This document shows positions 24,970 through 50,471 of a stretch of DNA of 57,914 bases, one piece after another; positions within the stretch are counted from its first letter, which is position 1, and the number at the start of each line of letters is the position of its first letter. The notes under the pieces were generated by a model that did not search any database, had not been told where the DNA came from, and saw only the letters and a program-made list of their open reading frames with translations. Source of the stretch: Oscillospiraceae bacterium. Lineage in GTDB: Bacteria; Bacillota; Clostridia; Oscillospirales; Oscillospiraceae. The stretch lies in the NCBI GenBank assembly GCA_015067795.1, contig SVLU01000013.1, positions 1 through 57,914 on the forward strand. Direction: 5' to 3'. The position numbers were made by a program, and so were the translations under genes.

Positions 24970-26175
24970 ATGAGATTATATGTAAATGAAAGTTCTAAGG
25001 CTGACGGCAAGCGTGTAGTGCTGGACGATATGCTCCTGACAACCGACCTGCCAACCACCGCAGGCTCTAAAATGCTTGAAAATTATGTAAGCCTTTTTGA
25101 AGCTGATATTATCAGCAAGCTGAGAAACGCAGGCTACTCCGTCTGCGGCAAGGCAAATATTGGTGAATTTGCAATCGACCTGCTGGGCGAAACATCCTGG
25201 TTCGGTGCCTGTGTCCGTGAGGACGGCACTCTCACCAATGCTTCCGCTGAGATTTTAGCAGACGACTCCATTGACGCTGTCATCTGCCTCGATGTAAACG
25301 GTGCACCAAGACGTGCTGCCGCTCTCGCAAACCGCGTTTTTATCAAGCCAACCTACGGCACAGTTTCCCGCTATGGCACTATCCCTGTTGCCTGCTCCGG
25401 TGAAACCGTCAGCGTTATGGCAGCAAGCACAGCAAAGTGCCGTGAGGCTCTTTCCGCTATCGTTGGTCATGACGATAAGGACGGCACAAGCCTTTCTGAA
25501 GCACAGTGTGCTCTTCTCAAGTCCGATGCTGAACGTAAGGCAGTAAAAAAGGTTGCTCTCGCTTCCTCTCTCACAGCTTCCGCCGACGAAGAGACAAAGG
25601 CAAAGATCAATGCTTTCCGTGCTTCCCTTGAAGCTCAGGGCATCACAGTAACCGAAATTGACGATCAGCTCCTTGGGGCTGCAAATACCGCATGGAACGT
25701 CCTGATGGCTGCCGAGCTTTGCAACAACGTATCCCGTTATGAGGGCGTTAAGTTCGGCTATCGTTCCCCTAACTACACAAACATCGACGAGCTGTATACA
25801 AACAGCCGTACCGAAGCTTTCGGTGATCTCCTCAAGACCACCATCCTGTTTGGCTCAGATGTGCTTTCCACCGACAATTACATGAAGATGTACGACAAGG
25901 GTCTCAGAGTTCGCAGAGTCATCTCCGAAGCATTTGCCGGTATTTTCAAGGAATATGATGCAGTTCTGATGCCTGCCTGTTCCAAGTGCAGTTATTCCGA
26001 AGCTGATGTTAAGGCAAACAAGTATATCGCATACGAAGAGAACGTTTACACAGCACCTGCTTCCATCACAGGTCTGCCTGCTGTTGTAGTGGGCGGTGTA
26101 CAGCTTGTGGGTGCTCCATTCTCCGACAACAGCCTGCTTGATGCTGCCGAAATCTACGAAAAGGAGCATAAGTGA
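24970..26175 (+). CDS. gatA: GatA-like amidotransferase subunit A paralogue: truncated (401 aa rather than about 485) and lacking the amidase-signature catalytic motif
   Basis: It retains DLPTTAGSKMLENY (the Lys of the triad) and KPTYGTVSRYG. The region that should read GGSSGGSAAAVA....GSDTGGSIR instead reads ASAEILADDSIDAV...LDVNGAPRRAAAL. About 45 N-terminal residues are also missing. Confidence 0.75.
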   Translation: MRLYVNESSKADGKRVVLDDMLLTTDLPTTAGSKMLENYVSLFEADIISKLRNAGYSVCGKANIGEFAIDLLGETSWFGACVREDGTLTNASAEILADDSIDAVICLDVNGAPRRAAALANRVFIKPTYGTVSRYGTIPVACSGETVSVMAASTAKCREALSAIVGHDDKDGTSLSEAQCALLKSDAERKAVKKVALASSLTASADEETKAKINAFRASLEAQGITVTEIDDQLLGAANTAWNVLMAAELCNNVSRYEGVKFGYRSPNYTNIDELYTNSRTEAFGDLLKTTILFGSDVLSTDNYMKMYDKGLRVRRVISEAFAGIFKEYDAVLMPACSKCSYSEADVKANKYIAYEENVYTAPASITGLPAVVVGGVQLVGAPFSDNSLLDAAEIYEKEHK

Positions 26176-27611
26176 TGAGTAAGTACGAAACCGTAATCGG
26201 CCTGGAAGTTCATGTTGAGCTTGCCACCGAATCGAAAATTTTCTGTTCCTGTTCCGCAAAGTTTGGTGCAGAACAGAACGATCACGTCTGTCCTGCCTGC
26301 TGTGGTATGCCGGGTATGCTCCCTGTAACCAACAAGCGTGTTGTTGACCTGGGCGTTACCGCAGGTCTGATGCTGAACTGCGATATCAACCGTGTTACCA
26401 CCTTCGACAAAAAGAGCTATTACTATCCTGACCTCCCCTGCTCCTATCAGACAACTCAGTGGTTTGCTCCTGTCTGTGTGAACGGTACAGTTACCATCGA
26501 GACTTCCAAGGGCAAGAAGGACATCCGCATTAAGCAGATCCATATGGAAGAAGATGCAGGCAAGCTGGTTCATGACGACTGGACCGACACCTCCCTTGTT
26601 GACTTCAACCGTACCAGTGTTCCTCTTATCGAGATCGTCAGCCAGCCTGACCTCTCCAGTGCTGAGGAGGTTGTAGCATACCTGGAACGTCTCCGTTCCC
26701 TTCTCCGTTTTGCAAAGGTTTCCGACTGCCGTATGGAACAGGGCTCCATGCGCTGTGACGTAAACCTCTCTGTACGTCCTGAGGGTAGCGATATTCTCGG
26801 TGTCAGAACCGAAATGAAGAACATGAACTCCCTGTCCGCTATTGAACGTGCTATCGAATACGAAACAGCAAGACATATCGACGCTATTGAACGCGGTACC
26901 GAAGTTCTTGTTCAGGAAACTCGCCGCTGGGACGACATCAAGGGCAAGAGCTACGCTATGCGTAACAAGGAAACCGCAGGCGACTATCGCTACTTCCCTG
27001 ATCCTAACGTAATGCCTATCGTTATTGACGACGAATGGTTTGCAAAGATCACATCCACAATTCCCGATCTCCCTGAAGTTAAGAAGCAGAAGTACATCGA
27101 AAACCTGGGCCTCAGCGAATACGATGCTGACCAGCTTGTTCAGAGCAGAGCTTTCTGCGATTGCTTTGAAGCTGCTTATGCTGAATGCGGCATGGCTAAG
27201 GACGTTGCAAACTGGGTTATCTCCGACTGTGCAAATATGCTGAACAAGAAGCAGATGACTGCTGATATGCTCACCATCGACGGCAAGGCTCTCGGTCAGC
27301 TTATAAAGCTCGTTGCAGACGGTAAGGTCAGCCGTGCAAACGCAAAGAAGATCCTTGCAGTTATGTTCAACGAAAACATTGATCCTGCAGCTTACGCCGA
27401 GGCTAACGGTCTTATCGTTTCCAACGACACAGGCAAGATCAAGGATGTCATCAGAGGCGTTCTGGATGCAGATCCAAAGTCCGTTGCTGACTATAAGAAT
27501 GGCAAGGAAAAAGCTCTCATGGCGCTCTTCGGCAAGTGTATGCGCGAGCTTAAGGGCAATTGCGACCCACAGCTTCTTAGAAGCTATCTCCTTGAAATGA
27601 TCAATCAGTAA
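26175..27611 (+). CDS. gatB: Asp/Glu-tRNA amidotransferase subunit B
   Basis: YETVIGLEVHVEL...CSC....C..C.G.PG..P at the N-terminus. The C-terminal YqeY/GatB tail is present. The ATG overlaps the gatA stop. Confidence 0.95.
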   Translation: MSKYETVIGLEVHVELATESKIFCSCSAKFGAEQNDHVCPACCGMPGMLPVTNKRVVDLGVTAGLMLNCDINRVTTFDKKSYYYPDLPCSYQTTQWFAPVCVNGTVTIETSKGKKDIRIKQIHMEEDAGKLVHDDWTDTSLVDFNRTSVPLIEIVSQPDLSSAEEVVAYLERLRSLLRFAKVSDCRMEQGSMRCDVNLSVRPEGSDILGVRTEMKNMNSLSAIERAIEYETARHIDAIERGTEVLVQETRRWDDIKGKSYAMRNKETAGDYRYFPDPNVMPIVIDDEWFAKITSTIPDLPEVKKQKYIENLGLSEYDADQLVQSRAFCDCFEAAYAECGMAKDVANWVISDCANMLNKKQMTADMLTIDGKALGQLIKLVADGKVSRANAKKILAVMFNENIDPAAYAEANGLIVSNDTGKIKDVIRGVLDADPKSVADYKNGKEKALMALFGKCMRELKGNCDPQLLRSYLLEMINQ

Positions 27612-27622
27612 ACAAACAATTT

Positions 27623-27660
27623 ATGCCTCATCTGAGCTATTTCAGATGAGGCATTTGTTT
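27623..27660. terminator. bidirectional terminator between gatB and the convergent asparaginase gene
   Basis: atgcctcatctga-gctatt-tcagatgaggcat flanked by T-runs on both strands. Confidence 0.75.
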
Positions 27661-27666
27661 TGCTTA

Positions 27667-28701
27667 TCAGTATATCATTTCGTGGTTGATGCTTCTGTTT
27701 ACAAACCGTGATAGCTGTTTTTCATCCAAATCCAGGGCACACCCCAAAAGTGTCTTTACATAAGCCATCTCATTTGTCACACCGCTTATGTGATATGCCC
27801 CCGCCCTGAGAATATCACCTGTGGACTCATATTTATATGCGTCAGGTCTGCACGGAGCGAGGAAAAGCTGAACTCCTACAGATTTACAGCGGTCCAGGAG
27901 ATACAGTATCGAGGAGCTTGAATACGCTCCCGCTCCTCCCTTGCGTTCAACGCATACGGTGTCTGAGTGATAAGTGCCGTGGACTATGGCACGAATTCCG
28001 GTAAGGCTGAAAGCCGCATAATCAATACCCACATAAGGCATTATCCTCATAACGCATGGGAGTAGTGGTTTCATTTTATTCAGATAAAATGTCCCTGTCT
28101 CATAAGCTTTCCCCTGAAGCTTTGCATTATTTGCATCAGTCACGATCATGGCATCAGCACTGAAGAAATCGTCACTGAAATTAGCACACTGCAGCAGATG
28201 TGAACCGTAATGGGTATAGATGACACCATCGCTGTTTCTGTAAACCGCGTAGACATTCGGAGCGATATTGTTCATGATCAGCTCGACAGACGCCCGGAAA
28301 TTGGCGTGTCCGTTGGTATTTTCATAATTTAGCGGAAGCTGGCTGGATACCAAGCAAACAGGAATATGAACACCGGCAAGAACTATCGACAACAGCGAAG
28401 CAGTATAGGCAAGGGTATCAGTACCGTGGAGAATGATGATACCCTGATATGCGTTCCAATCTACCTGATTTAGTAAAGCATCAAGGAGGATATTCCATGT
28501 TTTAACGGTCATGTTCTCGCTCAAAATATCCGTGGGCATTATCACATCAAAATGCACCCTGCCGGCAAAAGGAGAGTTTCCTCTTTCAAATCCGTCAATT
28601 ATATGCACGTTGGCGGCATCGGAATAACGCTGACCAAATGCATCGGTAGACGCACAGATTGTGCCGCCTGTAAGTATTACAAGGATTTTCTTATCGCTCA
28701 T
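27667..28701 (-). CDS. L-asparaginase family protein (type I / AnsA-like)
   Basis: The N-terminal KILVILTGGTI matches the asparaginase Thr nucleophile motif TGGTI, and HGTDTL is also present. The start is placed after a GGGAGGGG ribosome-binding site. Confidence 0.75.
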   Translation of the reverse strand: MSDKKILVILTGGTICASTDAFGQRYSDAANVHIIDGFERGNSPFAGRVHFDVIMPTDILSENMTVKTWNILLDALLNQVDWNAYQGIIILHGTDTLAYTASLLSIVLAGVHIPVCLVSSQLPLNYENTNGHANFRASVELIMNNIAPNVYAVYRNSDGVIYTHYGSHLLQCANFSDDFFSADAMIVTDANNAKLQGKAYETGTFYLNKMKPLLPCVMRIMPYVGIDYAAFSLTGIRAIVHGTYHSDTVCVERKGGAGAYSSSSILYLLDRCKSVGVQLFLAPCRPDAYKYESTGDILRAGAYHISGVTNEMAYVKTLLGCALDLDEKQLSRFVNRSINHEMIY

Positions 28702-28854
28702 AGCATCCCCTCCCATGTATATTGTAATTATAACCAACCGGCCAGACTAAAACAAGCTTTTCCTACCTTAATCTGTTCCATTTACATTAAAGTAGCAAAA
28801 ATATGGATAATATGATATATTGTTGTTAGTATGTCCCGAAAGGAGAATTCCAAC

Positions 28855-29328
28855 ATGATAAAAATACTGTTTGTCTGCCACGGCAACATCTGCAGAAGTC
28901 CCATGGGTGAATATATATTAAAGGATATGGTAAAAAAGCAGGGTCTTGCTAAGGAGTTCTATATCGCCTCTGCCGCCGCCCACAGGGACGAGATAGGCAA
29001 TCCTGTCTATCCCCCTGCCAGACGCAAGCTGGGAGAGATGGGCATAAGCTGTTCCGAAAAGCGTGCTATCCTTTTGACGGCTGATGATTACAATAAATAT
29101 GACCTGCTTTTAGCCGCTGACAGCTACAATGTGAGAGATATGCGCCGCATATGTGGCGGTGACCCTCAGGGTAAAATCCGCCGTCTCCTTGATTACACCA
29201 GCCGCCCCCGTGACATCGCCGACCCCTGGTATACCGGAGATTTTGACCGTACCGCCGATGATATTATAGAGGGCTGCAGGGCGTTGTTATCTCACCTGAA
29301 AAAAGAGGGCAGGATGCTATCTTGTTAG
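28855..29328 (+). CDS. low-molecular-weight protein-tyrosine phosphatase
   Basis: The P-loop CHGNICRSP matches C-x5-R, and the Asp loop ...DPWY is present. Confidence 0.85.
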   Translation: MIKILFVCHGNICRSPMGEYILKDMVKKQGLAKEFYIASAAAHRDEIGNPVYPPARRKLGEMGISCSEKRAILLTADDYNKYDLLLAADSYNVRDMRRICGGDPQGKIRRLLDYTSRPRDIADPWYTGDFDRTADDIIEGCRALLSHLKKEGRMLSC

Positions 29329-29371
29329 TTTTTTCAACAGCAAGGACAAAAGGCATCGCATTTTTTCTAAT

Positions 29372-30001
29372 TTACTGAATTTCTCTCTTTTTGAAAAATA
29401 CAACCGACAGATACCAAGAAAGAATATACACGATGACACCAACAACAGCAAGGGCTGCGAGAATTACATTAGGCCGAACCTCAGCAACCAGTTGCCCTCT
29501 GAAAAAGCTTGTTGCTAAGACGCTGGCTCCACATCCAAAACCAATCATCACATAATAGGCGGTTCGTCCTTTTTCTACGCCCAGTTTAAAAATGAACGGA
29601 AGAGAAATCGAAGATGTTAAGGTTGCCACGATCAGCATTAGCAGCATTAAAACAACAAATTCACCGAATGCAAAATTACCGGCTACGAACATCTTAATGC
29701 TTTGTGCAATACCGGTTACGATCAGCATTGTTACCTGCACAAACAAGCCTATCAAATACTTAGCAGAAACGATTTGAGCCTTCGTATACGGTAGCGTTCC
29801 GCTATATTGCATCCATCGGCTTCGCTCATCATAACCAAGTAGATTAACAGGAATCATACCGCAGAGCAGATAAGGATAGAAAACAAAGAACATATTTCCT
29901 TTACTCATCAAAGAAAGAATGGTAAATCCAATACAAACAAAAAAATAGTTTCTACAATATTTTTTCATCATATACCAATCTTTTAAAAGCAGTCCCTTCA
30001 T
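29372..30001 (-). CDS. ABC-2-type transporter permease (YtrC/D-like membrane subunit)
   Basis: Polytopic hydrophobic protein. Its start overlaps the stop of the upstream ATPase (ATGA). Confidence 0.6.
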   Translation of the reverse strand: MKGLLLKDWYMMKKYCRNYFFVCIGFTILSLMSKGNMFFVFYPYLLCGMIPVNLLGYDERSRWMQYSGTLPYTKAQIVSAKYLIGLFVQVTMLIVTGIAQSIKMFVAGNFAFGEFVVLMLLMLIVATLTSSISLPFIFKLGVEKGRTAYYVMIGFGCGASVLATSFFRGQLVAEVRPNVILAALAVVGVIVYILSWYLSVVFFKKREIQ

Positions 30002-30002
30002 T

Positions 30003-30845
30003 TTATCTCGCCTCCTTCGCCATAAACACGAATAGTTCCTCAATGCTAACAGGGCTAATATTGACATTTGCAGGTATGGCACTTCTTAAAACCATCGCCT
30101 CAATACCATATGGATTTTCTTTTTTATGCTTAATTGCCTCTGGCGGAAGCTTTTGCAGTTCTTCGGCAGTACAATGAATCAATCCGTATTCCGCAAGCAG
30201 TTGATCTTTTTCTTCGAAGAGCAGAAGCTTTCCTTTATGAAGGAAAGCAATGTAGTCGCACAGTTTTTCAAGATCACTAACGATATGCGAAGAAATAAGA
30301 ATGGAATGATTTTCATCTCTCGTAAAATCACTTAGCATCTCTACAACTTCATCACGAGCCACAGGGTCAAGCCCTGATGTTGCTTCGTCCATAATGAGAA
30401 GCTTTGCATTATGAGATAATGCTATGGCAATTCCAAGCTTCATCTTCATACCACGGGAAAACTCTTTGAACTGTTTTTCGTCAGTCAGTGCAAGTTTCTG
30501 TACCATGCGAGCATATTCAGCACTATCCCAGTTACGAAATGTGTGCTTCATTATCTTTCCGACCTGTTTTACTGTAAGACATTCCGGGATGCCAACCTCA
30601 TCCATCACAACGCCTATGTCCTCTTTTGTGAGTTCAATACCGTCCGTGTTATCTTTTCCGAGGATATCGATGCTTCCGCTGTCCTTGTGGATCATATTTA
30701 GAATAAGCTTGATAGTGGTGCTTTTGCCGGCACCGTTTTCACCTATAATCCCCATAATGCATCCACTTGGCAGGGTTAGATTAAGATCATCCAGCTTAAA
30801 GCCGGGATATGACTTGGTTAGATTTACAATTTCAAGTGCATTCAT
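30003..30845 (-). CDS. ABC transporter ATP-binding protein
   Basis: Walker A GENGAGKST, signature LSRGMKMKLG, Walker B LLIMDEATSGLD. Confidence 0.9.
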   Translation of the reverse strand: MNALEIVNLTKSYPGFKLDDLNLTLPSGCIMGIIGENGAGKSTTIKLILNMIHKDSGSIDILGKDNTDGIELTKEDIGVVMDEVGIPECLTVKQVGKIMKHTFRNWDSAEYARMVQKLALTDEKQFKEFSRGMKMKLGIAIALSHNAKLLIMDEATSGLDPVARDEVVEMLSDFTRDENHSILISSHIVSDLEKLCDYIAFLHKGKLLLFEEKDQLLAEYGLIHCTAEELQKLPPEAIKHKKENPYGIEAMVLRSAIPANVNISPVSIEELFVFMAKEAR

Positions 30846-31252
30846 CCTTGTTCCTCCAGACTAAAATTAACCATTTCGATAATATCTTGTTTGCTTAAAT
30901 TACAAGTAGCCGCAAGCCTAACGATCTCATCTATATGTTTTTCAATCTTTTTCAGATTTTCTTCTCGAAGAAGCTCCACGTTTTTTGGTGCAATGTAACA
31001 ACCCTTACCGGGAAGCGTATAGATAAAACCATCCTTTTCAAGCTCTTCATAAGCACGTTTTGTTGTAATAAAGCTAATGTGCAGATCCTTCGCCAAACCA
31101 CGAATAGACGGAAGCATCTCATCCTCTTTTAATGCTCCGCTGATGATCTGACTTTTAATTTGGGAATATATCTGGTCATAAATAGGGGCACCACTTTTAT
31201 TGTCAATCAGTATATTCACACCATCACCTCTGTTTGTACTGTATATATTCAT
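30842..31252 (-). CDS. GntR-family (YtrA subfamily) transcriptional repressor
   Basis: ...PIYDQIYSQIKSQIISGALKEDEMLPSIRGLAKDLHISFITTKRAYEEL... About 135 aa with only a short C-terminal extension, which fits the YtrA subfamily. It is followed by ABC ATPase and permease genes. Confidence 0.8.
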   Translation of the reverse strand: MNIYSTNRGDGVNILIDNKSGAPIYDQIYSQIKSQIISGALKEDEMLPSIRGLAKDLHISFITTKRAYEELEKDGFIYTLPGKGCYIAPKNVELLREENLKKIEKHIDEIVRLAATCNLSKQDIIEMVNFSLEEQG

Positions 31253-31264
31253 TATATACAGTAC
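31236..31264. promoter_or_regulatory. perfect 12-bp inverted repeat (operator candidate) overlapping the GntR start codon
   Basis: gtactgtatata-ttcat-tatatacagtac. Confidence 0.55.
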
Positions 31265-31333
31265 AAACACAAAAATCAATAGATTCTGAATAAGTTCACA
31301 GAAAAGTTAAAAAGCATGGCCAAAGCAAAAAGA

Positions 31334-31363
31334 GCTGACAGACTTCTACGGAAATCTGTCAGC
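31334..31363 (-). terminator. terminator of the V-ATPase operon
   Basis: gctgacaga...tctgtcagc hairpin with a T-run on the minus strand. Confidence 0.6.
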
Positions 31364-31393
31364 TCGTTATTCATTTGCAAAAAACAGTTCTTT

Positions 31394-31819
31394 TTAGCCG
31401 AGAGCTACCATGCTGAAAACCAGTGCGAACAATGCAACGGTTTCGCAAAGACCAACAACTGTGATGTACTGTGCAAAGCCCTTGCCTGTTTCTGCCAGAG
31501 CATCTGCACCGGCTGCGCCTGCTTTGCCCTGGAATACAGCGGAAAATGCCATAGCAATACCGGATGCAACGCCAAGGCCAAGTAAAAACGCAGGGTCAGC
31601 AGAGGAAGCCTTCATCTGCTGCATAAGAAGGAAGCCGTAAATAGTCTGTGTAAGAGGTGCGCCTGCAAAAACGGTGAGAATAAACGGTGCGGCTTTATTG
31701 CTCATGTAGCACTTCTTCCATGCGCCTATTGATGCCTGACCTGCAATACCAATGCCGATTGCAGAGCCGATAGCGGAGATGCCCATAACAAGGGCAGTTG
31801 CCAATAATCCTAAATTCAT
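31394..31819 (-). CDS. ntpK: V-type ATPase proteolipid subunit K (c-ring)
   Basis: Small, Gly/Ala-rich hydrophobic protein (...GIAMAFSAVFQGKAGAAG...) following subunit I. Confidence 0.85.
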   Translation of the reverse strand: MNLGLLATALVMGISAIGSAIGIGIAGQASIGAWKKCYMSNKAAPFILTVFAGAPLTQTIYGFLLMQQMKASSADPAFLLGLGVASGIAMAFSAVFQGKAGAAGADALAETGKGFAQYITVVGLCETVALFALVFSMVALG

Positions 31820-31843
31820 AATAATTCTCCTTTATAATCTAAT

Positions 31844-33757: not shown

Positions 33758-34392
33758 AACGAATAAACCTGCCTTTCGGAATCCTCAGCATTGCGAAGGG
33801 CTATTTTGCGTTTTGAAATCTTGGAACGCACCACAGCATTAACCTGCTGGTCTGCCAAATAAATTGATATTTTTCTGATGTTCTCCTCAGTTTCGGGTAT
33901 TTTTACCTTTTCAAACAGGTTGACTCTCTGTGAGGTTGCATGAAGCTCTTCCTGTAAGAGTCTGACCTGCTCATCCAACACTTCCGCCTCCAAATCGAGC
34001 AGCATAGCCTTTTCCATGTGGTTTGCTGCTATATCTACCCAAAGAGGCGTTTTATATAAATCATAGTCTCCTCTGAGAAAATCCGCTCCTTCAAAGACCG
34101 GAATAGCAACACCTGCAATATTCCCAACGCCCTTGCGAATATTGCTTACGGTGATTATTCCATCGGGGAAAGCGTCTTTTTCGCTGAAAACCGAGATCCA
34201 GGACTCAAATCCTTTTTCAAGGTTTTCTTTCTCTTGTCTTACAGCTCTGGCCTTTGGTTCGATGTTGCGGATTTCGGCCTGAAGCTGCTGCTTTTTAAGT
34301 GTCAGAGTAGGCAAATATCTCCGGTACATTTTGAGAGCATCCTTTTGTACCTTTAACTCGTTTTTGGTTAGTTTGATTTTTGCCATAAGCAC
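33754..34392 (-). CDS. ntpD: V-type ATPase subunit D
   Basis: About 210 aa, charged and helical: MAKIKLTKNELKVQKDALKMYRRYLPTLTLKKQQLQ. Confidence 0.85.
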   Translation of the reverse strand: MLMAKIKLTKNELKVQKDALKMYRRYLPTLTLKKQQLQAEIRNIEPKARAVRQEKENLEKGFESWISVFSEKDAFPDGIITVSNIRKGVGNIAGVAIPVFEGADFLRGDYDLYKTPLWVDIAANHMEKAMLLDLEAEVLDEQVRLLQEELHATSQRVNLFEKVKIPETEENIRKISIYLADQQVNAVVRSKISKRKIALRNAEDSERQVYSL

Positions 34393-34400
34393 AGTCCCCC

Positions 34401-35696: not shown

Positions 35697-35698
35697 TC

Positions 35699-39025: not shown

Positions 39026-39071
39026 CTTGAAAGTCTAATTTGATCTCATTTGGTTTCGGCAACTTTATCCT

Positions 39072-39854: not shown

Positions 39855-39867
39855 CGCCCACACCTCC

Positions 39868-40953: not shown

Positions 40954-40976
40954 TTATACCACCTCCTTATGCGTTC

Positions 40977-42374
40977 TTATCTTTTATCGTTGTCATCAAA
41001 CAGGTCTCCGCATTCCGGACAGAATTTTGGTGGGTTGCGTGGATCTTCCGGTTCCCAGCCGCACTTGTCACAGCGATACAGCGGAGCACCTTCCGGTTTC
41101 TTTGAGCCGCAATTCTGGCAGAACTTACCCTTGTTTACTGCACCGCAGGAACAGGTCCAGCCGCCATCAGCAGGCTTTGGAGATCCGCATTCAGGACAGA
41201 ACTTTCCTGTTGCCATAGTGCCGCATTTGCATTTCCAGCTTCCTGCCTGTACAGGCTCCGGCTTCTTACCGCCGCATTCCGGGCAGAACTTACCGGTTGC
41301 CATTGCTCCGCAGGAGCATTTCCAACCGTTTGCATTAGGTGCAGCCTGAACGGGCTGCTGTGGCTGCTGCTGACCCATAGCAAAGAGGTTTTGAGGGTTT
41401 ACACCGCCTGCATTCATTGCCATGCCCATTCCCATAAAGCCGGTCATAGCACCGGCCTGGTTGGAGGCTGCTGCCTTCATTGCATCTGCCTGAGCACCAA
41501 CCAATGTAGCCGCCGCCATGGTAGGATCACGCATGATAGCGGTACGCTGTGCCTGCTTGATCATTTCCGCATCTTCTTCCGGCAGAGTAACAGAACCGAG
41601 AGCGATGCTTACAACCTGCAAGCCTCTCAGCTCGCCCCACTTCGCGGAAAGCGCAGCATTCATGGCTTCTTCTAACTCTGTGTTGTGAGAAATGATCTGA
41701 TTTGGACGAAGCTCCATATTGGACAGTCTGCCCAGTGCCGGCTGTAATGCGCTGATGAACTCAGTCTTTAACTGATTTTCAATCTCGTCACGGGTATATT
41801 CCTGTTCCACATTGCCGCATACGTTGGTATAGAACAGCAGAGGATTTGCGATCTTATAGGAATATACACCGAAGCAGCGGAGAGATACGTCAATATCCAG
41901 ACCGATTTTAGAGTCCACTACCCGGAATGGAATTGGGTTTGGTGTACCGAATTTGTTGTCAATCAGCTCTTTTGTGTTGAAATAGTAAACACGCTGATCC
42001 TTGCCTGTGTCACCGCCAAAGGTAAAACGCTTACCAACGGTTTTAAATGTTTCCTTTATGCTGCTGCCAAGACTGCCTGCAAAAATGCTTGGTTCTGTGG
42101 AAGTGTCGTATGTAAATTCACCGGGTTCAGCACAGACCTCAACGATTTTGCCTTGCTCCACGATCATCATGCACTGACCGTCCGCAACGGCGATTACGCT
42201 GCCGTTGGAAATAATATTATCGCTGCCCTTGGTATTGGAGGAACGTCTGCCTGTACGCTTACGTCCTTTAGCCACCATAGTGTCCTTATCCATTGATTCG
42301 CAATAGAAATACTCTTTCCATTGATCGGCAAAGGTTCCGCCTAAAGCTCCTAAGCCTGCTTTAATGAGACCCAT
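40977..42374 (-). CDS. SPFH/band-7 domain protein (YdjI-like) fused to three or four C-terminal zinc-ribbon repeats
   Basis: N-terminus MGLIKAGLGALGG...NTKGSDNIISNGSVIAV...; the SPFH core is in the central region. A Met/Gly/Ala/Gln-rich linker follows, then W(K/T)C(S/K)CG..(A/N)(T/K)GKFC(P/Q)(E/N)CG repeated three times, plus a CDKCG...CPECG. Confidence 0.7.
   Translation of the reverse strand: MGLIKAGLGALGGTFADQWKEYFYCESMDKDTMVAKGRKRTGRRSSNTKGSDNIISNGSVIAVADGQCMMIVEQGKIVEVCAEPGEFTYDTSTEPSIFAGSLGSSIKETFKTVGKRFTFGGDTGKDQRVYYFNTKELIDNKFGTPNPIPFRVVDSKIGLDIDVSLRCFGVYSYKIANPLLFYTNVCGNVEQEYTRDEIENQLKTEFISALQPALGRLSNMELRPNQIISHNTELEEAMNAALSAKWGELRGLQVVSIALGSVTLPEEDAEMIKQAQRTAIMRDPTMAAATLVGAQADAMKAAASNQAGAMTGFMGMGMAMNAGGVNPQNLFAMGQQQPQQPVQAAPNANGWKCSCGAMATGKFCPECGGKKPEPVQAGSWKCKCGTMATGKFCPECGSPKPADGGWTCSCGAVNKGKFCQNCGSKKPEGAPLYRCDKCGWEPEDPRNPPKFCPECGDLFDDNDKR
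41010..41340. repeat. tandem repeats of about 63 bp (x3) encoding the zinc-ribbon repeats
   Basis: ccgcattccggrcagaayttwccggttgccat.g..ccgcag... repeated in phase. Confidence 0.7.
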
Positions 42375-42410
42375 AATTCATTTCTCCTTTTTTAGTTTTA
42401 TATACTATTT

Positions 42411-43757: not shown

Positions 43758-43789
43758 TTGGGTAAATCTCCTTCCTGATTTTAAACACA

Positions 43790-43822
43790 GGGCGAAAGGG
43801 CTGCTGCCCCTTCGCCCTCTAT
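43790..43822 (-). terminator. terminator between the two lipoprotein genes
   Basis: agggcgaagg...ccttcgccct hairpin. Confidence 0.5.
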
Positions 43823-43835
43823 TATAGCTATTATT

Positions 43836-45143
43836 TTACTTTCGTACAAGTACCCAATCCAAGTCAAGAACCAGATTGCCATCTTCGATCTCTGCGTAGA
43901 AGTTGCTATGATCACCGTCATCATAGCGAATGTCAATATTATTGTCGTACAGAGTATAGGAGAATTCATAGGTGTCGTCCTTCCATGTGTAAACACCTCT
44001 GCCGTCGGCTTTGAATGTGAAGCTTTCGTTATTTCCTGCTTCTTCATCCAGCCAGCATCCAATCAATGCGCTTGCCAAATCGCTGTCATCGGAAACTTCG
44101 ATCTCTTCGTCGGATTTGTCCAGTATGATCTCATTGCCGAACTGGTCAATAAGGGTCAGCACGCTGCCGGCTGCAGAAACAGTGAAGCTTTCCTCGTCGC
44201 CGTCATCGTATGTCAGAGTGAGACTATCGCCGCTAACCGCATATGTAAATGGATATTCCGGACCGCTGATAAGAAGACCGCTGCCATCTTCATTGAATAC
44301 ATAAGTGTTGTCCCAGTCGCTGTCTCTTTCAAGCCATGTGCCGTAAAGTGCGGAAGCATCCACGTTCACAACGGGAGCTGCAGTTCCTTCGTCAGCTTCC
44401 AGATCCCATGTTCTGCCGCTGTCCACACCAAATAGCTGGCCTGCGATCCATGCATACTGGTCTTCAGTAATATCCCAACCGTTGACTGTAAAACCGAAAA
44501 GACCGGGTGCTGTGACGCCATCCTCAACCTTGCCGTCGTCCATGACTCTCCAGAAGTAGTGCGTGTACTCGACGCCAACAAATACTTCGCTATAGGTAAA
44601 GTCGTCGGCAGAGGTATATGTAGTCTCAATGAGCTTTACGTCCTTGTCCTCCCACTTGAAGCCAAGGTCTATTACCTTCTGATCGTACTCTGGGTATTCT
44701 GCTGCGGTCTCAGGGGCCAGTTCGCCGTCAAAGTAGAGCTGCTCGAGAACGCCGTAACCTGTAGGAAGTTCAGTTGGGTCGTTATAGATGTCGCGGCTCC
44801 AATAAACATGGGAGTAGGTGCTGTAATCTCTGACATCGTCATATACCCAGAAGTCATTGAGATATCCGTCTGTCAGATATTCAGCATACTCATCCTCGTC
44901 GAAGTATGCGCCTTCAGGGCAGTAGATGGTGGCTGTGTAAGCCTCATAGTCCGGGTTGCTGCCGTACTGGGTCACAACGGACTTGACCTCGTCATCAGCC
45001 GGCTCAGACTCCTCAGGTGTTACATTCTCGTCCGTAGTGGACTCAACCGGTTCGGAATTCTCCTCAGGTGCTTCCTTTCCACCACAGGCAACCAGAGTAA
45101 GCAGCATGATTGCTGTAAGAATGATTGCTAAAATTCTTTTCAT
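43836..45143 (-). CDS. acidic lipoprotein of unknown function
   Basis: Lipobox LVAC, an acidic linker, and a very Asp/Tyr/Glu-rich body. Confidence 0.7.
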   Translation of the reverse strand: MKRILAIILTAIMLLTLVACGGKEAPEENSEPVESTTDENVTPEESEPADDEVKSVVTQYGSNPDYEAYTATIYCPEGAYFDEDEYAEYLTDGYLNDFWVYDDVRDYSTYSHVYWSRDIYNDPTELPTGYGVLEQLYFDGELAPETAAEYPEYDQKVIDLGFKWEDKDVKLIETTYTSADDFTYSEVFVGVEYTHYFWRVMDDGKVEDGVTAPGLFGFTVNGWDITEDQYAWIAGQLFGVDSGRTWDLEADEGTAAPVVNVDASALYGTWLERDSDWDNTYVFNEDGSGLLISGPEYPFTYAVSGDSLTLTYDDGDEESFTVSAAGSVLTLIDQFGNEIILDKSDEEIEVSDDSDLASALIGCWLDEEAGNNESFTFKADGRGVYTWKDDTYEFSYTLYDNNIDIRYDDGDHSNFYAEIEDGNLVLDLDWVLVRK

Positions 45144-45164
45144 TTTCTTTTCCTCCTATGTATA

Positions 45165-46001
45165 CTACTTTTTAAATAACTTACCGAAGAAACCTTGCTT
45201 TACCTTGCCTTCTTCGATGGCGTTTGCTGTTTCAATACCCTCTTTGACGACTTCCTTCACGTTTTCGCCCTTCACCGCTGCCTTGAGGGCTGCTGCGGCG
45301 GTATCGCCAAGATTGCGTACCTGCATACGGCTTTTGCGTTCCAGGTCAAACTCAGCCTTGCCAAGCCATGCTATGCGGTCGCTATTAATCCGATTAGCCA
45401 GATCATGGAATGCTCTAACCCCATCCGCACCGGATACTTCAGACTCAAAACGAATTTCACGGATGCAAATATCGTCGTATGGAATGGTCAGCACACAGCG
45501 GTTAACCTTGCCATCATCGCCCTTGGATTCTTCAACCTGTACATATTCAGCATTTGGGTTAGTGATTTCGCTGCGGCGTGTAAAGAATTCGGACTCACCT
45601 TCGGAGCGGAACTCATAAGGCATCATCTTTTCAAACCAGAATACCGGGATATGCTCATAGCGGCTCATCTCGCTCATGTTGATCTGGAAAGCACCAATGG
45701 TGGTGTTGCAGCGGTAGTGGACACGCTTGCTACCTAAGTCCCAAGTGTTGAAGCTGCGTTCTGCTCGAGCAAATCTACCTTCAGCGGCATCAAAGCTGGC
45801 CTCAAAATCAGCTGCTTCCTGTCCCAGATTATCCATCATAAGCTGGGCGTTGTCTTTAGAGGTGTAGCTCATTCTTGCGAAGTAATTGGTTTTGTGCTTA
45901 CATTCGTTGCAGATAAATTCCTTTGTTGCCAGTTTGGAGCGCTTCAATGCTCCTACTTCTGTACCGCAAAAGGTACAGGCTTCTTTGCTAAATAAACCCA
46001 T
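45165..46001 (-). CDS. zinc-ribbon protein of unknown function (N-terminal C-x2-C...C-x2-C)
   Basis: Starts MGLFSKEACTFCG...CNECK, followed by a roughly 250 aa domain with no recognisable motif. Confidence 0.55.
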   Translation of the reverse strand: MGLFSKEACTFCGTEVGALKRSKLATKEFICNECKHKTNYFARMSYTSKDNAQLMMDNLGQEAADFEASFDAAEGRFARAERSFNTWDLGSKRVHYRCNTTIGAFQINMSEMSRYEHIPVFWFEKMMPYEFRSEGESEFFTRRSEITNPNAEYVQVEESKGDDGKVNRCVLTIPYDDICIREIRFESEVSGADGVRAFHDLANRINSDRIAWLGKAEFDLERKSRMQVRNLGDTAAAALKAAVKGENVKEVVKEGIETANAIEEGKVKQGFFGKLFKK

Positions 46002-46054
46002 AATCTTTCTTCCTTTCCTTAATAACTGTTGAATAAAATCCTGCAATTTGGGCT

Positions 46055-46354
46055 TTACAGCTTTTCGGCACAGCGTTTACAACAGACACCGCCATTGTCC
46101 AATGCACCATACACCGTGCACTCCTCACAGACCATATCTCCGCATACTTCACAACGATTAAGCTCATGACGTACTTCATTGTTTGCCCGCTCGTAAGCCT
46201 TGCTGTGATCGTTTGCGTAGATAATAGCCCGTGCCTCCCGTTCATCGCGGCTGAGCCAAAGCTTCTTTTTGAACTGCATCTGTGGCTCGATCACGATGGG
46301 CGGCAAAGACTTCCCACAGCAATCACAGAAAAATTCAAACTCGAAACGGCTCAT
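46055..46354 (-). CDS. small multi-CxxC zinc-finger protein
   Basis: FCDCCG, CEVCGD, CEEC and CCKRC within 99 aa. Confidence 0.5.
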   Translation of the reverse strand: MSRFEFEFFCDCCGKSLPPIVIEPQMQFKKKLWLSRDEREARAIIYANDHSKAYERANNEVRHELNRCEVCGDMVCEECTVYGALDNGGVCCKRCAEKL

Positions 46355-46540
46355 TGTTGAATTATCTGCAAACCGTTTTGTGACAGATCTCAGCACGGTT
46401 GACCTCCTTCCAATATTTTATTTCAATTATATTTTACGAGAAAAACCGTCTCTGGAACAGGCCACTTCAGCAGCAAAAAGGGCTAATTTTAGGGCTACCA
46501 TGGGAGGGTTACCATCATTAAGGTATCAGCGATAACTTAT

Positions 46541-46556
46541 AATTGACAGTATTGTC
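46541..46556. promoter_or_regulatory. palindromic -35/operator candidate TTGACA-gtat-TGTCAA upstream of the XRE gene
   Basis: TTGACAgtatTGTCAAattatgcTATATT lies 45 bp upstream of the ATG. Confidence 0.45.
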
Positions 46557-46601
46557 AAATTATGCTATATTATGATATACTAAACATGAGAGGTTATCCC
46601 C

Positions 46602-46844
46602 ATGAGTGGAATTAAATTAGACATTCATAATAAGGCTTTTCCGGACCAGGTCAAGTATGTACGCATGGTTTTGCAATTAAGCCAGACAGAGCTTGCTGAG
46701 CAGATCGGTGTCTCCTACGCAACCGTCAGCCGTTGGGAACGCGAAAACCGCAAGCCGCAGCTTGCAATGCTGGGCAAGTTCTATTCCTTCTGTTTGCGTA
46801 ATGGCATTGAGCCGGAAAACACAGAACAAGGAGATCAGATATGA
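46602..46844 (+). CDS. XRE-family HTH transcriptional regulator (small, Cro/CI-like)
   Basis: LSQTELAEQIGVSYATVSRWERENRKP. Confidence 0.85.
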   Translation: MSGIKLDIHNKAFPDQVKYVRMVLQLSQTELAEQIGVSYATVSRWERENRKPQLAMLGKFYSFCLRNGIEPENTEQGDQI

Positions 46845-47851
46845 CTCTGTTTTATGTAATTACATTTGCAGTTTCTCTGCTAATGCTTTTAGTATATTTT
46901 ATCATCGACAGAAAACGTGATATTTGGCTGCGGCTGCTTTTTATCTTCGTTGCCATCAGTAATGCAGGCTATCTTGCATTATCGCTATCACGTTCTCTTA
47001 CCGCCGCACTTTTGTCAAACGCGGTTGCATATCTGGGAAACGTTTTCCTGCCTTTTTTCCTGCTGATGATGGTCATTCAGCTTTCCTATGTTCGGTATTC
47101 CAAGCGGCTTCCCATTATCCTGATTGTTCTTAATACAGTCATGTTCCTGATTGCAACCAGCGGCGGCTACCTTCCGATTTACTATAAAGAGGTATCCTTT
47201 GAGATCGTTGAGGGTGTCGGACATTTAGTCAAGGTCTACGGACCGCTGCACTGCGTATATAAATATTATCTGTTTGGATATTTTATTGCTATTAGCACCG
47301 TTATTTGCTATACCGCAATCAAAAAGACAGCTGTTTCCACAAAGCACACTGCATTTCTGGCTATTGTTTTGCTGGGCAATATCGCACTGTGGCTGGTGGA
47401 AAATCTCACCGGCACAAAATATGAATTTCTCACAATTTCTTACCTCATGACAGAGGGACTTATCCTGCTACTTTATGGTATTTTACAGGACTATGAAGCT
47501 GCCGAACCCGCAAGCGACTCCAGCGACCTTGCCTATGCGGACGCGGACGAACATCTGACAGTCGAAATGGTACAGGAAGAACCTGTAGTATTTGTTGATA
47601 ATCAACAGGTCTTTTCCGATGAGCAGATCAAAAATCTGCTTGAAAACTGGAACGTAATTTACGCTCTGACACAAAGAGAAGCCGAAGTTTTGAAATTCAT
47701 TCTTGAAAAACGCAAACGCAAAGACATCGCCCAGGTGCTTTTCGTAACAGAGAGTACAATTAAAAAGCACACCTCCAACATTTACAAAAAAATCGGTGTC
47801 GCCAATCGTACGGAGCTTTTTGAAAAAGCAAATACATATCTTATGAAATAA
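46841..47851 (+). CDS. membrane protein (about 6 TM) with a C-terminal LuxR-type HTH
   Basis: ...LTQREAEVLKFILEKRKRKDIAQVLFVTESTIKKHTSNIYKKIGVANRTEL... The N-terminal 200 aa are hydrophobic. Its ATG overlaps the XRE stop (ATGA). Confidence 0.75.
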   Translation: MTLFYVITFAVSLLMLLVYFIIDRKRDIWLRLLFIFVAISNAGYLALSLSRSLTAALLSNAVAYLGNVFLPFFLLMMVIQLSYVRYSKRLPIILIVLNTVMFLIATSGGYLPIYYKEVSFEIVEGVGHLVKVYGPLHCVYKYYLFGYFIAISTVICYTAIKKTAVSTKHTAFLAIVLLGNIALWLVENLTGTKYEFLTISYLMTEGLILLLYGILQDYEAAEPASDSSDLAYADADEHLTVEMVQEEPVVFVDNQQVFSDEQIKNLLENWNVIYALTQREAEVLKFILEKRKRKDIAQVLFVTESTIKKHTSNIYKKIGVANRTELFEKANTYLMK

Positions 47852-47854
47852 AAA

Positions 47855-47892
47855 TAGAGCTAACTGATTGATTAAGTCAGTTAGCTCTTTAA
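47855..47892. terminator. bidirectional terminator
   Basis: agagctaactga...tcagttagctct. Confidence 0.65.
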
Positions 47893-47987
47893 TTATTGAT
47901 AGTGAAATTTTGTTGCCATTTCGTTGCCACGAATGGCTCAAATCCTTAAAAAGTCCGGTGATGACTGGGCTTTTTCGACCTGCGGGA

Positions 47988-48968
47988 TCACTCCCACTCA
48001 ATAGTGCCGATAGGCTTTGGAGTGATGTCCATAACCACGCGGTTGATGCCTTCCACCTCATGGGTGATACGGTCGGTAATATGGTGCAGGATTGGATATG
48101 GGATTTCTTCGATGGTAGCTGTCATAGCGTCCACAGTGTTTACTGCACGGAGGATAGCAGGCCAGCCTTCATAACGCTTGCCGTCGCGAACACCAACGCT
48201 CTTGAAATCAGGAACAGCGATGAAATACTGCCATACCTTTTCGGCAAGGCCGTTCTTGTCAAATTCTTCACGGAGAATTGCATCAGCTTCACGCAGTGCG
48301 TGGAGACGATCTCTTGTGATAGCACCGAGGCAGCGTACACCAAGACCGGGACCTGGGAATGGCTGACGGTATACCATGCCGTGCGGCAGGCCAAGAGCTT
48401 CACCAACGACACGAACCTCGTCCTTATACAGAAGCTTTACAGGCTCAACAAGCTGCATTTCCATTTCTTCAGGCAGACCGCCAACATTGTGGTGTGCCTT
48501 AACGCCATCGGACTCGATGATGTCAGGATAAATTGTACCCTGTGCAAGGAAGGAGATGCCCTCCAGCTTTGCGGACTCTTCATCAAATACCTTAATGAAT
48601 TCTTCGCCGATGATCTTACGCTTGCGTTCTGGTTCAGCTACGCCAGCCAGCTTGTCCAGGAAGCGGTCGGTTGCATCCACATAAATAAGGTTTGCGTCCA
48701 GTGCCTTACCGAAAACTTCGATAACCTGTTCACTTTCACCCTTACGCATAAGACCGTGGTTTACATGAACACAGACGAGCTGCTTACCAATAGCCTTAAT
48801 GAGCAGAGCTGCAACAACGGAAGAATCAACACCACCGGACAGAGCCAGCAGAACCTTCTTATCTCCTACCTGATTGCGTACAGCCTCTACCTGCTCGGCA
48901 ATAAAAGCCTGCGCCAGTTCATTATTAGTAATGCGTTCCATTGTTTCCGGACGTTTGTTGTTTTCCAT
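47988..48968 (-). CDS. guaA: GMP synthase, ATP-pyrophosphatase/synthetase subunit only (GuaA C-terminal half, like archaeal GuaAB subunit B); no glutamine amidotransferase domain is encoded here
   Basis: P-loop SGGVDSSV, plus the dimerisation domain. The start has a strong AGGGAGG ribosome-binding site, and upstream intergenic DNA leads directly to purF. Confidence 0.8.
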   Translation of the reverse strand: MENNKRPETMERITNNELAQAFIAEQVEAVRNQVGDKKVLLALSGGVDSSVVAALLIKAIGKQLVCVHVNHGLMRKGESEQVIEVFGKALDANLIYVDATDRFLDKLAGVAEPERKRKIIGEEFIKVFDEESAKLEGISFLAQGTIYPDIIESDGVKAHHNVGGLPEEMEMQLVEPVKLLYKDEVRVVGEALGLPHGMVYRQPFPGPGLGVRCLGAITRDRLHALREADAILREEFDKNGLAEKVWQYFIAVPDFKSVGVRDGKRYEGWPAILRAVNTVDAMTATIEEIPYPILHHITDRITHEVEGINRVVMDITPKPIGTIEWE

Positions 48969-49043
48969 TGTAATGCCTCCCTTAATTTCTATGTAAAAAT
49001 ATTAAACAATAATCAGATAATTATACGCTTCCCTGTGAAATTA

Positions 49044-50471
49044 TTATTCTTTTCCGTCCCAGCAGTAGGTGCAGAGCTTGCATTTGTCAATACCGATAGC
49101 CTCAACAGCACCCTCAAGAGACTGGAATTCAAGAGATGCGAAATTGAACTTATCACATATAGCCTGACGCATTCTCTTGCCGCGTTCCGTGGAAGCGTCA
49201 CTGTATTCATCAATATACTTAAGTCCTTCTTCACCCTCAAGTTCAACAATAGTCTTGCGTGTGATAAGCTCCATTGGGCTGGTTGCACGGGAGAAGTTGA
49301 GATATTTGCAGCTATACATAATAGGTGGACAAGCAGAACGCATATGAACAGACTTCGCACCATTGTCATACAGGAATTCTACTGTTTCCTTAAGCTGTGT
49401 GCCTCTAACGATGGAGTCGTCAACGAACAGCAGATTTTTGCCTTCGATGAGCTCGTGAATAGCTATCTGCTTCATCTTTGCAACCTTATTTCTATCCCTC
49501 TGGTTGGTAGGAGTGAAGCTTCTTGCCCATGTTGGGGTATATTTAATGAAAGGACGTGCAAACGGAATACCGCTTTCATTTGCGTAGCCAATAGCATGAG
49601 GTGTGCCGGAATCAGGAACACCGCTTACATAGTCAATATCCGCTGCAGTCTTACTCTCAGCATCAGCCTTTGCCAAAATGCCGCCATTGCGATAACGCAT
49701 GGTTTCGACATTTTTACCTTCATATGTGGAGTTTGGATAGCCGTAATAGGTCCAGAGGAATGCACAAATACGCATTTCTTTTCTTGGCGGAAGAATTTCA
49801 CTAATGCCGTCGGCTGTAATTTCAACTGTTTCGCCGGGGCCCAGCTCCTTTACGGTCTCATATCCCAGCTTCTGGAATGCGAAGGATTCAAAGGATACGC
49901 AATGACCGTCCTTGGACTTGCCGATGATAACAGGCAGACGACCATAGCGGTCGCGTGCCGCGATAATACCGCCGTCATCCTTGAGAATAAGGATGGATGC
50001 TGTACCGTCGATGGAGTCCTGTGCAAACCTGATACCATCTGCAAATGTACTCTTTCTGTTGATAAGCGCCGCAACAAGCTCAGCGGAATTGACCTTACCG
50101 CTTGTCATGGCATTGAATTGACCTGTACCGAAATCCAGATTGTGCTGGATAAGCTCTTCCGCATTATTGATAACGCCTATGATGCAAATTGCATAGGTGC
50201 CGAGATTGGAGCGCATCAGCAGTGGCTGTGGATCATAGTCGCTGATACAGCCGATTGCGGAATTACCGCTCATCTCGTCAGTAATTCTTTCAAACTTTGT
50301 TCTGAATGGAGAGTTCTGAATATTGTGGATGTCACGCTGTAAGCCAAGTCCTTCAGCGTCATAAGCAGCCATGCCGCCTCTTCTTGTGCCAAGGTGAGAA
50401 TGATAGTCTGTGCCGTAAAATACGTCGGAAACTGCATCTCGTTTACTTGCTATTCCGAAAAATCCGCCCAT
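49044..50471 (-). CDS. purF: amidophosphoribosyltransferase (PurF) with Gly in place of the N-terminal Cys nucleophile
   Basis: Starts MGGFFGI where the canonical sequence is MCG(I/V)(V/F)G. It has a PRTase domain and a C-terminal Cys cluster (CKLCTYC). A GGAGGA ribosome-binding site lies 5 nt upstream of the ATG. Confidence 0.8.
   Translation of the reverse strand: MGGFFGIASKRDAVSDVFYGTDYHSHLGTRRGGMAAYDAEGLGLQRDIHNIQNSPFRTKFERITDEMSGNSAIGCISDYDPQPLLMRSNLGTYAICIIGVINNAEELIQHNLDFGTGQFNAMTSGKVNSAELVAALINRKSTFADGIRFAQDSIDGTASILILKDDGGIIAARDRYGRLPVIIGKSKDGHCVSFESFAFQKLGYETVKELGPGETVEITADGISEILPPRKEMRICAFLWTYYGYPNSTYEGKNVETMRYRNGGILAKADAESKTAADIDYVSGVPDSGTPHAIGYANESGIPFARPFIKYTPTWARSFTPTNQRDRNKVAKMKQIAIHELIEGKNLLFVDDSIVRGTQLKETVEFLYDNGAKSVHMRSACPPIMYSCKYLNFSRATSPMELITRKTIVELEGEEGLKYIDEYSDASTERGKRMRQAICDKFNFASLEFQSLEGAVEAIGIDKCKLCTYCWDGKE

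Follow-up and report, generated by a model that had tools for sequence, protein, structure and literature searches.

Glutaminase-less variants of GatA, PurF and GuaA in an Oscillospiraceae contig and their relatives among gut and rumen Clostridia

The glutamine-hydrolysing site or domain has been lost from three amidotransferases encoded in a 57,914-nt stretch of contig SVLU01000013.1 from an Oscillospiraceae bacterium (hereafter, the window). These are a GatA-fold subunit whose Ser-cisSer-Lys triad is replaced (GatA'), a phosphoribosyl pyrophosphate (PRPP) amidotransferase without Cys1 (PurF') and a GMP synthase that consists of its ATP-pyrophosphatase and dimerisation domains, with no glutamine amidotransferase (GATase) domain (GuaA'). 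The textbook cases of ammonia being channelled from glutamine include PurF, GatCAB and GMP synthase. The original prediction, made from the window alone, had claimed that each of the three lacks its glutaminase here, and that the synthetase and transferase parts are conserved and preceded by good ribosome-binding sites in housekeeping contexts. The first claim was borne out by residue alignments and domain coverage, and the second agreed with model scores, motifs, operon structures and Shine-Dalgarno sites. Judged from homologous sequences, the three losses are genuine and old and happened independently of one another, and each is fixed in a conserved family that shows signs of purifying selection. 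On the same grounds, the window proteins represent three separate glutaminase-less lineages that are widespread among Clostridia of the gut and rumen, in the Oscillospiraceae and families close to them.

The interval flagged in that prediction (24970–50471) comprises two units, the gat operon on the plus strand and the purF'-guaA' pair on the minus strand, which are separated by a V-type ATPase operon and unrelated genes. The coordinates of all features are listed in Table 1.

RESULTS

The GatA-fold subunit of the gat operon

We aligned GatA' with the solved GatA structures 4wj3 and 3h0l and with a canonical GatA from another gat locus (L105). In these alignments, the position of the catalytic Lys (KD motif) is occupied by Asp19. 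The GGSSGGS motif is replaced by DGTLTNA, in which Leu88 corresponds to the cis-Ser, and GTDTGGSIRQP is replaced by LDVNGAPRRAA, in which Ala112 corresponds to the nucleophilic Ser. The N-terminus is ~55 residues shorter than that of canonical GatA. GatA' matched the Pfam Amidase model with 162.8 bits, and its score against the TIGR00132 gatA equivalog model (253 bits) was below the cut-off (481.1). A phmmer search of the PDB with GatA' returned only GatA chains as the best sequence matches (E 1e-49 to 1e-44). Likewise, the top 10 PDB fold matches of an AlphaFold 2 (AF2) model with a predicted local distance difference test (pLDDT) score of 86.7 were all GatA, with query-normalised TM-scores (TMq) of 0.80–0.90.

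Relatives of GatA' number in the thousands in the databases, and residue counts were made on the 120 closest homologues of GatA' and, below, of PurF'. Aside from an identical copy, the GatA' homologues were 61–69% identical to GatA' and 392–420 aa in length. Asp was found at the Lys position in all of them (120/120) and Leu at the cis-Ser position in nearly all, while the nucleophile position was occupied by Ala, Thr, Ser or Met. The identical protein, E7456_04565, is encoded in an NCBI metagenome-assembled genome (MAG) labelled Ruminococcaceae/Oscillospiraceae bacterium, and the homologues are named 'hypothetical protein' or 'amidase family protein' at NCBI. From these comparisons, GatA' belongs to a large, strongly conserved family that has lost the glutaminase triad.

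The gatA' gene has a good Shine-Dalgarno site and its stop codon is overlapped by the start of gatB. In every related locus with visible neighbours, GatA' is encoded between gatC and a high-scoring gatB, mostly after aspS, and across the majority of the longer related loci gatB was 70–83% identical. In the T-box leader, the codon that closes the specifier loop on its 3' side is AAC (Asn), followed by A. This AAC-A was invariant across an alignment of five divergent T-box leaders in which the flanks vary, and a T-box also precedes aspS in L090, L092, L096 and L118. Because the AAC T-box is conserved ahead of aspS, the gat operon is best understood as a unit that responds to tRNA(Asn) and serves the tRNA-dependent formation of asparagine. 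Given the Asn T-box and the gat operon, the aspS product is presumably non-discriminating.

The PRPP amidotransferase variant

PurF' begins with MGGFFGI, and its Gly2 was aligned with Cys1 of the mature Bacillus subtilis PurF. Three further residues of the glutamine site, R26, N101 and D127 (E. coli numbering, by our own placement on the B. subtilis PurF alignment), are replaced by Leu, Ile and Ser, respectively. The PRPP loop LLFVDDSIVRGTQ and the GVPDSG motif of the phosphoribosyltransferase (PRTase) domain are kept; they align with their counterparts in B. subtilis PurF and are conserved across the family. The same is true of Cys236, Cys388, Cys467 and Cys470, which occupy the assigned 4Fe-4S ligand positions in that alignment. 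No in-frame start codon was present upstream of purF', and the first Cys of the protein is residue 75. PurF' scored 181.8 bits against the TIGR01134 equivalog model (cut-off 350). Its AF2 model was moderate (pLDDT 66.7, with a poor C-domain) and served for a family-level fold match only, in which the top 17 PDB matches were all PurF.

More than 8000 relatives of PurF' were detected at E <1e-10, and the family is present in at least several hundred species-level genomes; NCBI names the homologues 'amidophosphoribosyltransferase'. The 120 closest were 74–88% identical to PurF', and 119/120 begin with MGG[FY]FG. Invariant positions make up 36% of the N-domain, compared with 49% of the C-domain. 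By these fractions, the dead N-domain is nearly as constrained as the transferase domain.

We scanned one genome per GTDB species, which yielded at least 591 PurF' loci, and took the best 80 for neighbourhood counts. The gene lies among pur genes in 71/80 loci, between purE/purC and purM, with the typical order purE-(purC)-purF'-purM-purN-...-purD. It is the sole purF-like gene of the pur operon in 68 of these 71 loci (68 of the best 80 species genomes). The purF' gene of the window, which has a good Shine-Dalgarno site, is not in a pur operon but paired with guaA', and purF' also lies outside the pur operon in the nine nearest relatives of the window (L006, L008, L009, L014–L016, L020, L021 and L023). 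A conserved purF'-guaA' operon was ruled out as the pairing was found on the window contig only, and in 0/80 related genomes.

The stand-alone ATP-pyrophosphatase of GMP synthase

GuaA' covers only positions 193–512 of the full-length GMP synthase model. It passes the C-terminal-domain model TIGR00884 (432.3 bits versus 338.75), matches GMP_synt_C with 117.7 bits and contains the P-loop SGGVDSS; its best model score was obtained with bacterial full-length GMP synthase. Since only 75 nt separate guaA' from purF', there is no GATase remnant at the locus. The gene has a good Shine-Dalgarno site.

Relatives of GuaA' with 89–94% identity are uniformly 325–326 aa and share a common start point, and NCBI names the homologues 'glutamine-hydrolyzing GMP synthase'. 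Among 1.84 billion cluster representatives, neighbours above ~65% identity were stand-alone or fragmentary, and fused GuaA of ~500 aa appeared only at ≤60%. Three longer homologues (P0241, P0242 and P0312) were considered as fused forms and rejected as internal-duplication misassemblies. The neighbourhoods of guaA' vary: it follows rpoA-rplQ in one contig and lies beside an integrase island in others. In L087 and L088 9971–16981 (Ruminiclostridium-labelled MAG), integrase, NikA-like, DnaB-like and transposase genes start directly after guaA', which points to the 3' flank of guaA' as a mobile-element integration site.

DISCUSSION

Free ammonia as the probable nitrogen donor

We lean, by a modest degree, towards the simplest explanation, namely that the three enzymes take free NH3/NH4+ as their nitrogen donor. 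The nitrogen-accepting halves are intact and at their pathway positions (GatB with GatC, the PRTase domain and Fe-S site of PurF, and the ATP-pyrophosphatase of GuaA). The glutamine-hydrolysing half is either dead but conserved (GatA' and the N-domain of PurF') or absent (GuaA'). Under this explanation, PurF' would form phosphoribosylamine from PRPP and ammonia, and ammonia would aminate adenylyl-XMP on GuaA'. GatCA'B would amidate Asp-tRNA(Asn) with ammonia once the Asn T-box has sensed uncharged tRNA(Asn). GatA' and the N-domain of PurF', although dead, would be kept as structural parts of their complexes, and might perhaps serve as an entry port through which ammonia reaches the existing tunnel.

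Ammonia is used by CarB alone and by mitochondrial carbamoyl phosphate synthetase I (CPS I), whose GATase domain is dead, and rumen fluid contains millimolar ammonia. External ammonia can be used in vitro by most amidotransferases, including the isolated ATP-pyrophosphatase (ATPPase) subunit of archaeal GMP synthetase (GMPS) (PMC10526850), and GatB and GatE amidate with ammonia that arrives through a tunnel (PMC2330236). According to the statement in PMC3261824 that cites Mei and Zalkin (1989), Cys1 mutants of E. coli PurF lost the use of glutamine and kept that of ammonia.

Several observations weigh against this explanation. The Km of GMP synthetases for NH4+ is high, at 26–174 mM (PMC10526850). 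In 32/32 of the PurF' pur operons that reach far enough, the single-chain formylglycinamidine ribonucleotide (FGAM) synthase has an intact GATase nucleophile motif, G[IV]CNGFQ, and the enzyme of L010 scored 1856 bits against a cut-off of 1057. TrpG in the trp operon of L008, whose PurF' is 77% identical to that of the window, keeps GVCLGHQ and HPE. A canonical PurF directly follows PurF' in 3/80 loci (L057, L076 and L083). In L105 (4040–10648, a high-GC metagenome contig), a canonical gatC-gatA-gatB set, whose GatA has KDN, GGSSGGS and GGSIRQP intact, lies directly upstream of gatC-gatA'-gatB. Homologues of the asparaginase-like gene next to the gat operon, with 38–62% identity, adjoin 7/24 informative gatCA'B loci and 0/8 canonical gatCAB loci. 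In addition, the genome of the window may itself encode canonical paralogues or glutaminase subunits that act in trans, and the strong conservation of the dead domains could reflect a new ligand or activity instead of a passive scaffold.

Because FGAM synthase and TrpG keep their glutaminase motifs, glutamine-dependent amidotransfer persists in the clade. The lineage-wide shift to ammonia that the original prediction proposed does not hold in that form: the change is confined to particular enzymes, and glutamine has not been abandoned as a nitrogen donor. This survey of further amidotransferases covered the locus DNA of PurF' relatives rather than whole genomes, and its other result would favour ammonia. 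In L010, L048, L053 and L066, just upstream of the pur operon, the pyr operon pyrC-carB-pyrK-pyrD-pyrF-pyrE-pyrB leaves 15–28 nt from pyrC to carB and contains no carA. These operons are a possible fourth glutaminase-less case, although carA may lie elsewhere in those genomes. No further amidotransferase was found among the scanned open reading frames (ORFs) and called genes of the window.

The original prediction had named, as a case that would count against it, other amidotransferases being canonical while these three have intact paralogues elsewhere in the genome, and part of that picture was found in the relatives, in the form of the canonical PurF and GatCAB described above. The canonical PurF of the three tandem loci has a propeptide that ends in Cys, and HRGQ and HNGN are intact. 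These tandems lie within pur operons (L057 10001–12914, L083 2251–5106 and L076 6–2627), and the paired proteins are 30% identical. They may be an intermediate before the canonical copy is lost, or a sign of a hetero-oligomer. The GatA' of L105 has Glu at the Lys position, and the GatA' type also occurs in an organism whose base composition is very different from that of the window. As L105 carries both sets, and second gat genes were also found in L152 and L141, canonical and A'-type tRNA-dependent amidotransferases can coexist.

A glutaminase in trans as a possible alternative

An alternative that we consider rather unlikely is that a glutaminase acts in trans: a separate GATase would serve GuaA', the linked asparaginase-family protein would deliver ammonia to GatCA'B in the manner of GatD, and PurF' would assemble with a canonical PurF into mixed oligomers. 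For GuaA', the archaeal two-subunit GMPS, whose subunits associate only transiently (PMC10526850), provides a model. However, a GATase gene was found neither close to guaA' in the window nor within 8 kb on either side in three related loci, which represent two further distinct neighbourhoods. We also searched 1.85 Mb of locus DNA from relatives for a GuaA-type GATase or CarA by tblastn, with residues 1–206 of E. coli GuaA (an approximate sequence) and TrpG as probes; only trpG was detected in this low-power search of loci rather than whole genomes. For PurF', the purF'/purF tandems would fit mixed oligomers, whereas PurF' alone is present in 68/71 pur-context loci, and its dead N-domain fills the place of the glutaminase and leaves no obvious docking site.

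For GatCA'B, the association with the asparaginase-like gene is real. In addition to the seven loci counted above, two more linkages were seen on shorter flanks. The gene is co-directional and directly after gatB in six loci (L103, L127, L130, L141, L142 and L149), whereas in the window it is convergent behind a terminator-like hairpin and in L090 it precedes the T-box. The family profile matched the type I asparaginase 9ufr (E 1.9e-23) and Pyrococcus abyssi GatD (1zq1, E 4.5e-23) about equally well, over both domains. In this family, however, the catalytic Lys aligns with an invariant Gln171, and the match begins at GatD residue 95, so that the N-terminal domain of GatD is absent. The score of the window protein against the curated GatD model was 75.5 bits (cut-off 310). 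The absent Lys, the absent N-terminal domain and the scores rule out a plain GatD orthologue; a role as partner of GatCA'B is possible. The family has a conserved HGTYHSxTxCxE where YGxGN is usual, together with several invariant Cys and His residues, which may form a metal site.

Pseudoenzymes and artefacts as improbable alternatives

The three proteins could instead be pseudoenzymes, that is, regulatory or scaffolding paralogues, with catalysis left to canonical GatCAB, PurF and GuaA from other parts of the genome. The scores of GatA' and PurF' below the NCBIfam equivalog cut-offs, the coexistence of dead and canonical types in some genomes, the location of purF' outside the pur operon in the nearest relatives of the window and the strong conservation of the dead domains would fit this explanation. 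However, the acceptor halves keep the checked motifs (the PRPP loop and the P-loop SGGVDSS) together with a full-scoring GatB, and GuaA' passes a curated model of the GMP synthase C-terminal domain. Moreover, 68 pur operons have no purF-like gene besides purF', and the gat operon and aspS stand under a tRNA(Asn) T-box, as would fit a working Asn-tRNA pathway. We regard the pseudoenzyme explanation as quite improbable.

The chance that the losses reflect sequencing or assembly errors, or recent pseudogenisation in this contig, is practically negligible: although the contig stems from a metagenome and a few GuaA' database homologues are visibly misassembled, artefact is excluded because each of the three proteins recurs unchanged on independent contigs of several metagenomes and because hundreds of homologues share the substitutions and lengths, and the reading frames are intact with good ribosome-binding sites. 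To judge from these sites, all three genes are probably expressed. The window makes up nearly the whole of the 58.7 kb JGI metagenome contig Ga0318466_10012278 (sample 3300031555). Start codons hidden further upstream, from which Cys1 or a GATase domain would be regained, were also ruled out, as each ORF opens at the first start codon past a stop codon and the gaps are 23–75 nt. Whatever probability the explanations considered here do not take up, we leave to readings that we have not thought of.

If the enzymes do use free ammonia, several textbook glutamine amidotransferases of gut and rumen Clostridia might have turned into dedicated ammonia enzymes whose dead modules were remodelled as ports that capture ammonium and feed it into the old tunnel. 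GatCA'B and the Lys-less, Cys/His-rich asparaginase-fold protein would then form a third, undescribed type of tRNA-dependent amidotransferase that is dedicated to Asn synthesis and controlled by an Asn T-box. Such remodelling would be visible in the change of Lys-Asp to Asp-Asp in GatA' and of Cys-Gly to Gly-Gly at the N-terminus of PurF'. We hold this extended proposal to be doubtful.

Comparison with known systems

Mitochondrial CPS I, which is eukaryotic and depends on N-acetylglutamate, takes free ammonia and still carries a glutaminase domain that is dead. GatA' and the N-domain of PurF' have their best precedent in it, although it is a different enzyme and no shared descent is implied. 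PurF' resembles a natural equivalent of the E. coli Cys1 mutants in that the PRTase motif is kept, and in sequence and fold it is closest to B. subtilis PurF. In contrast to those mutants, it is natural and fixed, has lost more residues of the glutamine site and has an N-domain that has diverged yet is strongly conserved.

The archaeal two-subunit GMPS of Methanocaldococcus jannaschii and Pyrococcus horikoshii has a separate ATP-pyrophosphatase, similar in size to GuaA', that alone produces GMP from ammonia in vitro (PMC10526850). Archaeal GMPS possesses a dedicated GATase subunit, unlike the surroundings of guaA', where none was found. Bacterial GMPS is described as the two-domain type in the same review (PMC10526850), and the bacterial stand-alone GuaA' is outside this picture.

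As a normal glutamine-dependent enzyme, the GatCAB of Clostridium acetobutylicum offers a contrast to GatCA'B. Its aspS-gatCAB operon has been reported to serve tRNA-dependent asparagine formation and to carry a T-box riboswitch (Saad et al. 2012, as cited in PMC4206432). The gat operon of the window follows the same T-box and aspS logic, but its GatA' lacks the catalytic triad. Archaeal GatDE (PMC2330236) combines a GatB-type kinase/transamidase with an asparaginase-family ammonia donor, and gatCA'B is likewise linked to an asparaginase-family gene; however, gatCA'B loci still have GatC and a GatA-fold subunit, and the linkage is found in ~30% of loci. NAD synthetases (PMC3376133) are one family that occurs with and without a glutaminase module according to lineage, similar to the three variants here. 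They belong to a different family, and ammonia-dependent NadE, unlike these variants, has long been characterised.

A full-text literature search returned no account of a PurF that naturally lacks the Cys, of a GatA without its triad or of a bacterial GuaA ATPPase that stands alone. Each of the three proteins fails one defining feature of its family (the triad, Cys1 or the GATase domain) and keeps the rest; they would act in the manner of GatA, PurF and GuaA but should not be classed as glutamine-hydrolysing. If pathway flux does pass through glutaminase-less enzymes in hundreds of abundant gut and rumen species, the label 'glutamine-hydrolysing' in genome annotations and metabolic models would give a wrong nitrogen stoichiometry and ATP cost for these organisms. 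Such enzymes would also explain, at the molecular level, why many fibre-degrading bacteria of the rumen have long been seen to require ammonia. Furthermore, they would be natural experiments on the purpose of a dead glutaminase domain and its tunnel.

OTHER FEATURES OF THE WINDOW

Table 1. Positions of the features discussed (window coordinates, unless a related locus is named)
Feature	Position	Strand	Description
Promoter-like site TTGACA-17-TACAAT	22472..22500	+	Ahead of the T-box leader; 11/12 consensus matches; consensus match only
T-box leader	22563..22788	+	RF00230, 108.5 bits versus gathering threshold 93, full model matched; controls aspS-gatC-gatA'-gatB
aspS	22887..24650	+	Bacterial-type aspartyl-tRNA synthetase; NF001750, 776.8 bits versus cut-off 443
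gatC	24665..24946	+	TIGR00135, 72.3 bits versus cut-off 47.1
gatA'	24970..26175	+	401 aa; GatA-fold subunit, Ser-cisSer-Lys triad replaced, N-terminus shortened
gatB	26172..27611	+	Canonical kinase/transamidase subunit; NF004012, 596.3 bits versus cut-off 338
Bidirectional terminator-like hairpin	27623..27654	.	13–14 bp stem, both strands; between gatB and the convergent asparaginase-like gene
Asparaginase-superfamily gene, atypical subfamily	27667..28701	-	GGT and HGTDT kept; convergent with the gat operon
Terminator-like hairpin	47856..47888	.	14 bp stem downstream of guaA', between convergent genes
guaA'	47988..48968	-	326 aa; ATP-pyrophosphatase and dimerisation domain, no GATase domain
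purF'	49044..50471	-	475 aa; Cys1 to Gly, glutamine site lost; PRTase motif and Fe-S cysteines kept
Promoter-like site TTGAAA-17-TATAAT	50517..50545	-	For the purF'-guaA' pair; 11/12 consensus matches; consensus match only
Asparaginase-like homologues elsewhere	L090 3418-4503; L095 3860-4897; L103 3708-4787; L130 7102-8175; L142 10659-11711
carA-less pyr operons	L010 556-8951; L048 190-8067; L053 80-7407; L066 147-8502		Just upstream of the pur operon

Two long antisense ORFs lie opposite guaA'/purF' (47868–50342 on the plus strand, 824 aa) and aspS (22890–24632 on the minus strand, 580 aa); both were rejected as genes and taken as shadow ORFs of conserved genes. Pfam scans of positions 1–22 kb showed a glycosyltransferase/ABC polysaccharide cluster and no amidotransferase. 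This upstream polysaccharide biosynthesis cluster (3973–15496) contains several GT2, GT4 and GT8 glycosyltransferases, a TupA-like ATP-grasp protein and ABC transporter genes. Between the two main units, a Band-7/SPFH-like protein (40977–42374, minus strand) carries at its C-terminus a tail in which a zinc-ribbon-like unit, CxxC...CPxCG, is repeated four times.

The minus strand at the beginning of the window contains the Rfam Gut-1 small RNA motif twice (38–111 and 1119–1195; 50.5 and 77.8 bits, respectively), adjoined by a tRNA-Leu(CAA) at 1240–1326 on the same strand. At the extreme opposite end, a 5S rRNA gene is located at 57764–57880 (minus strand), beyond which the rRNA operon probably carries on past the contig end.

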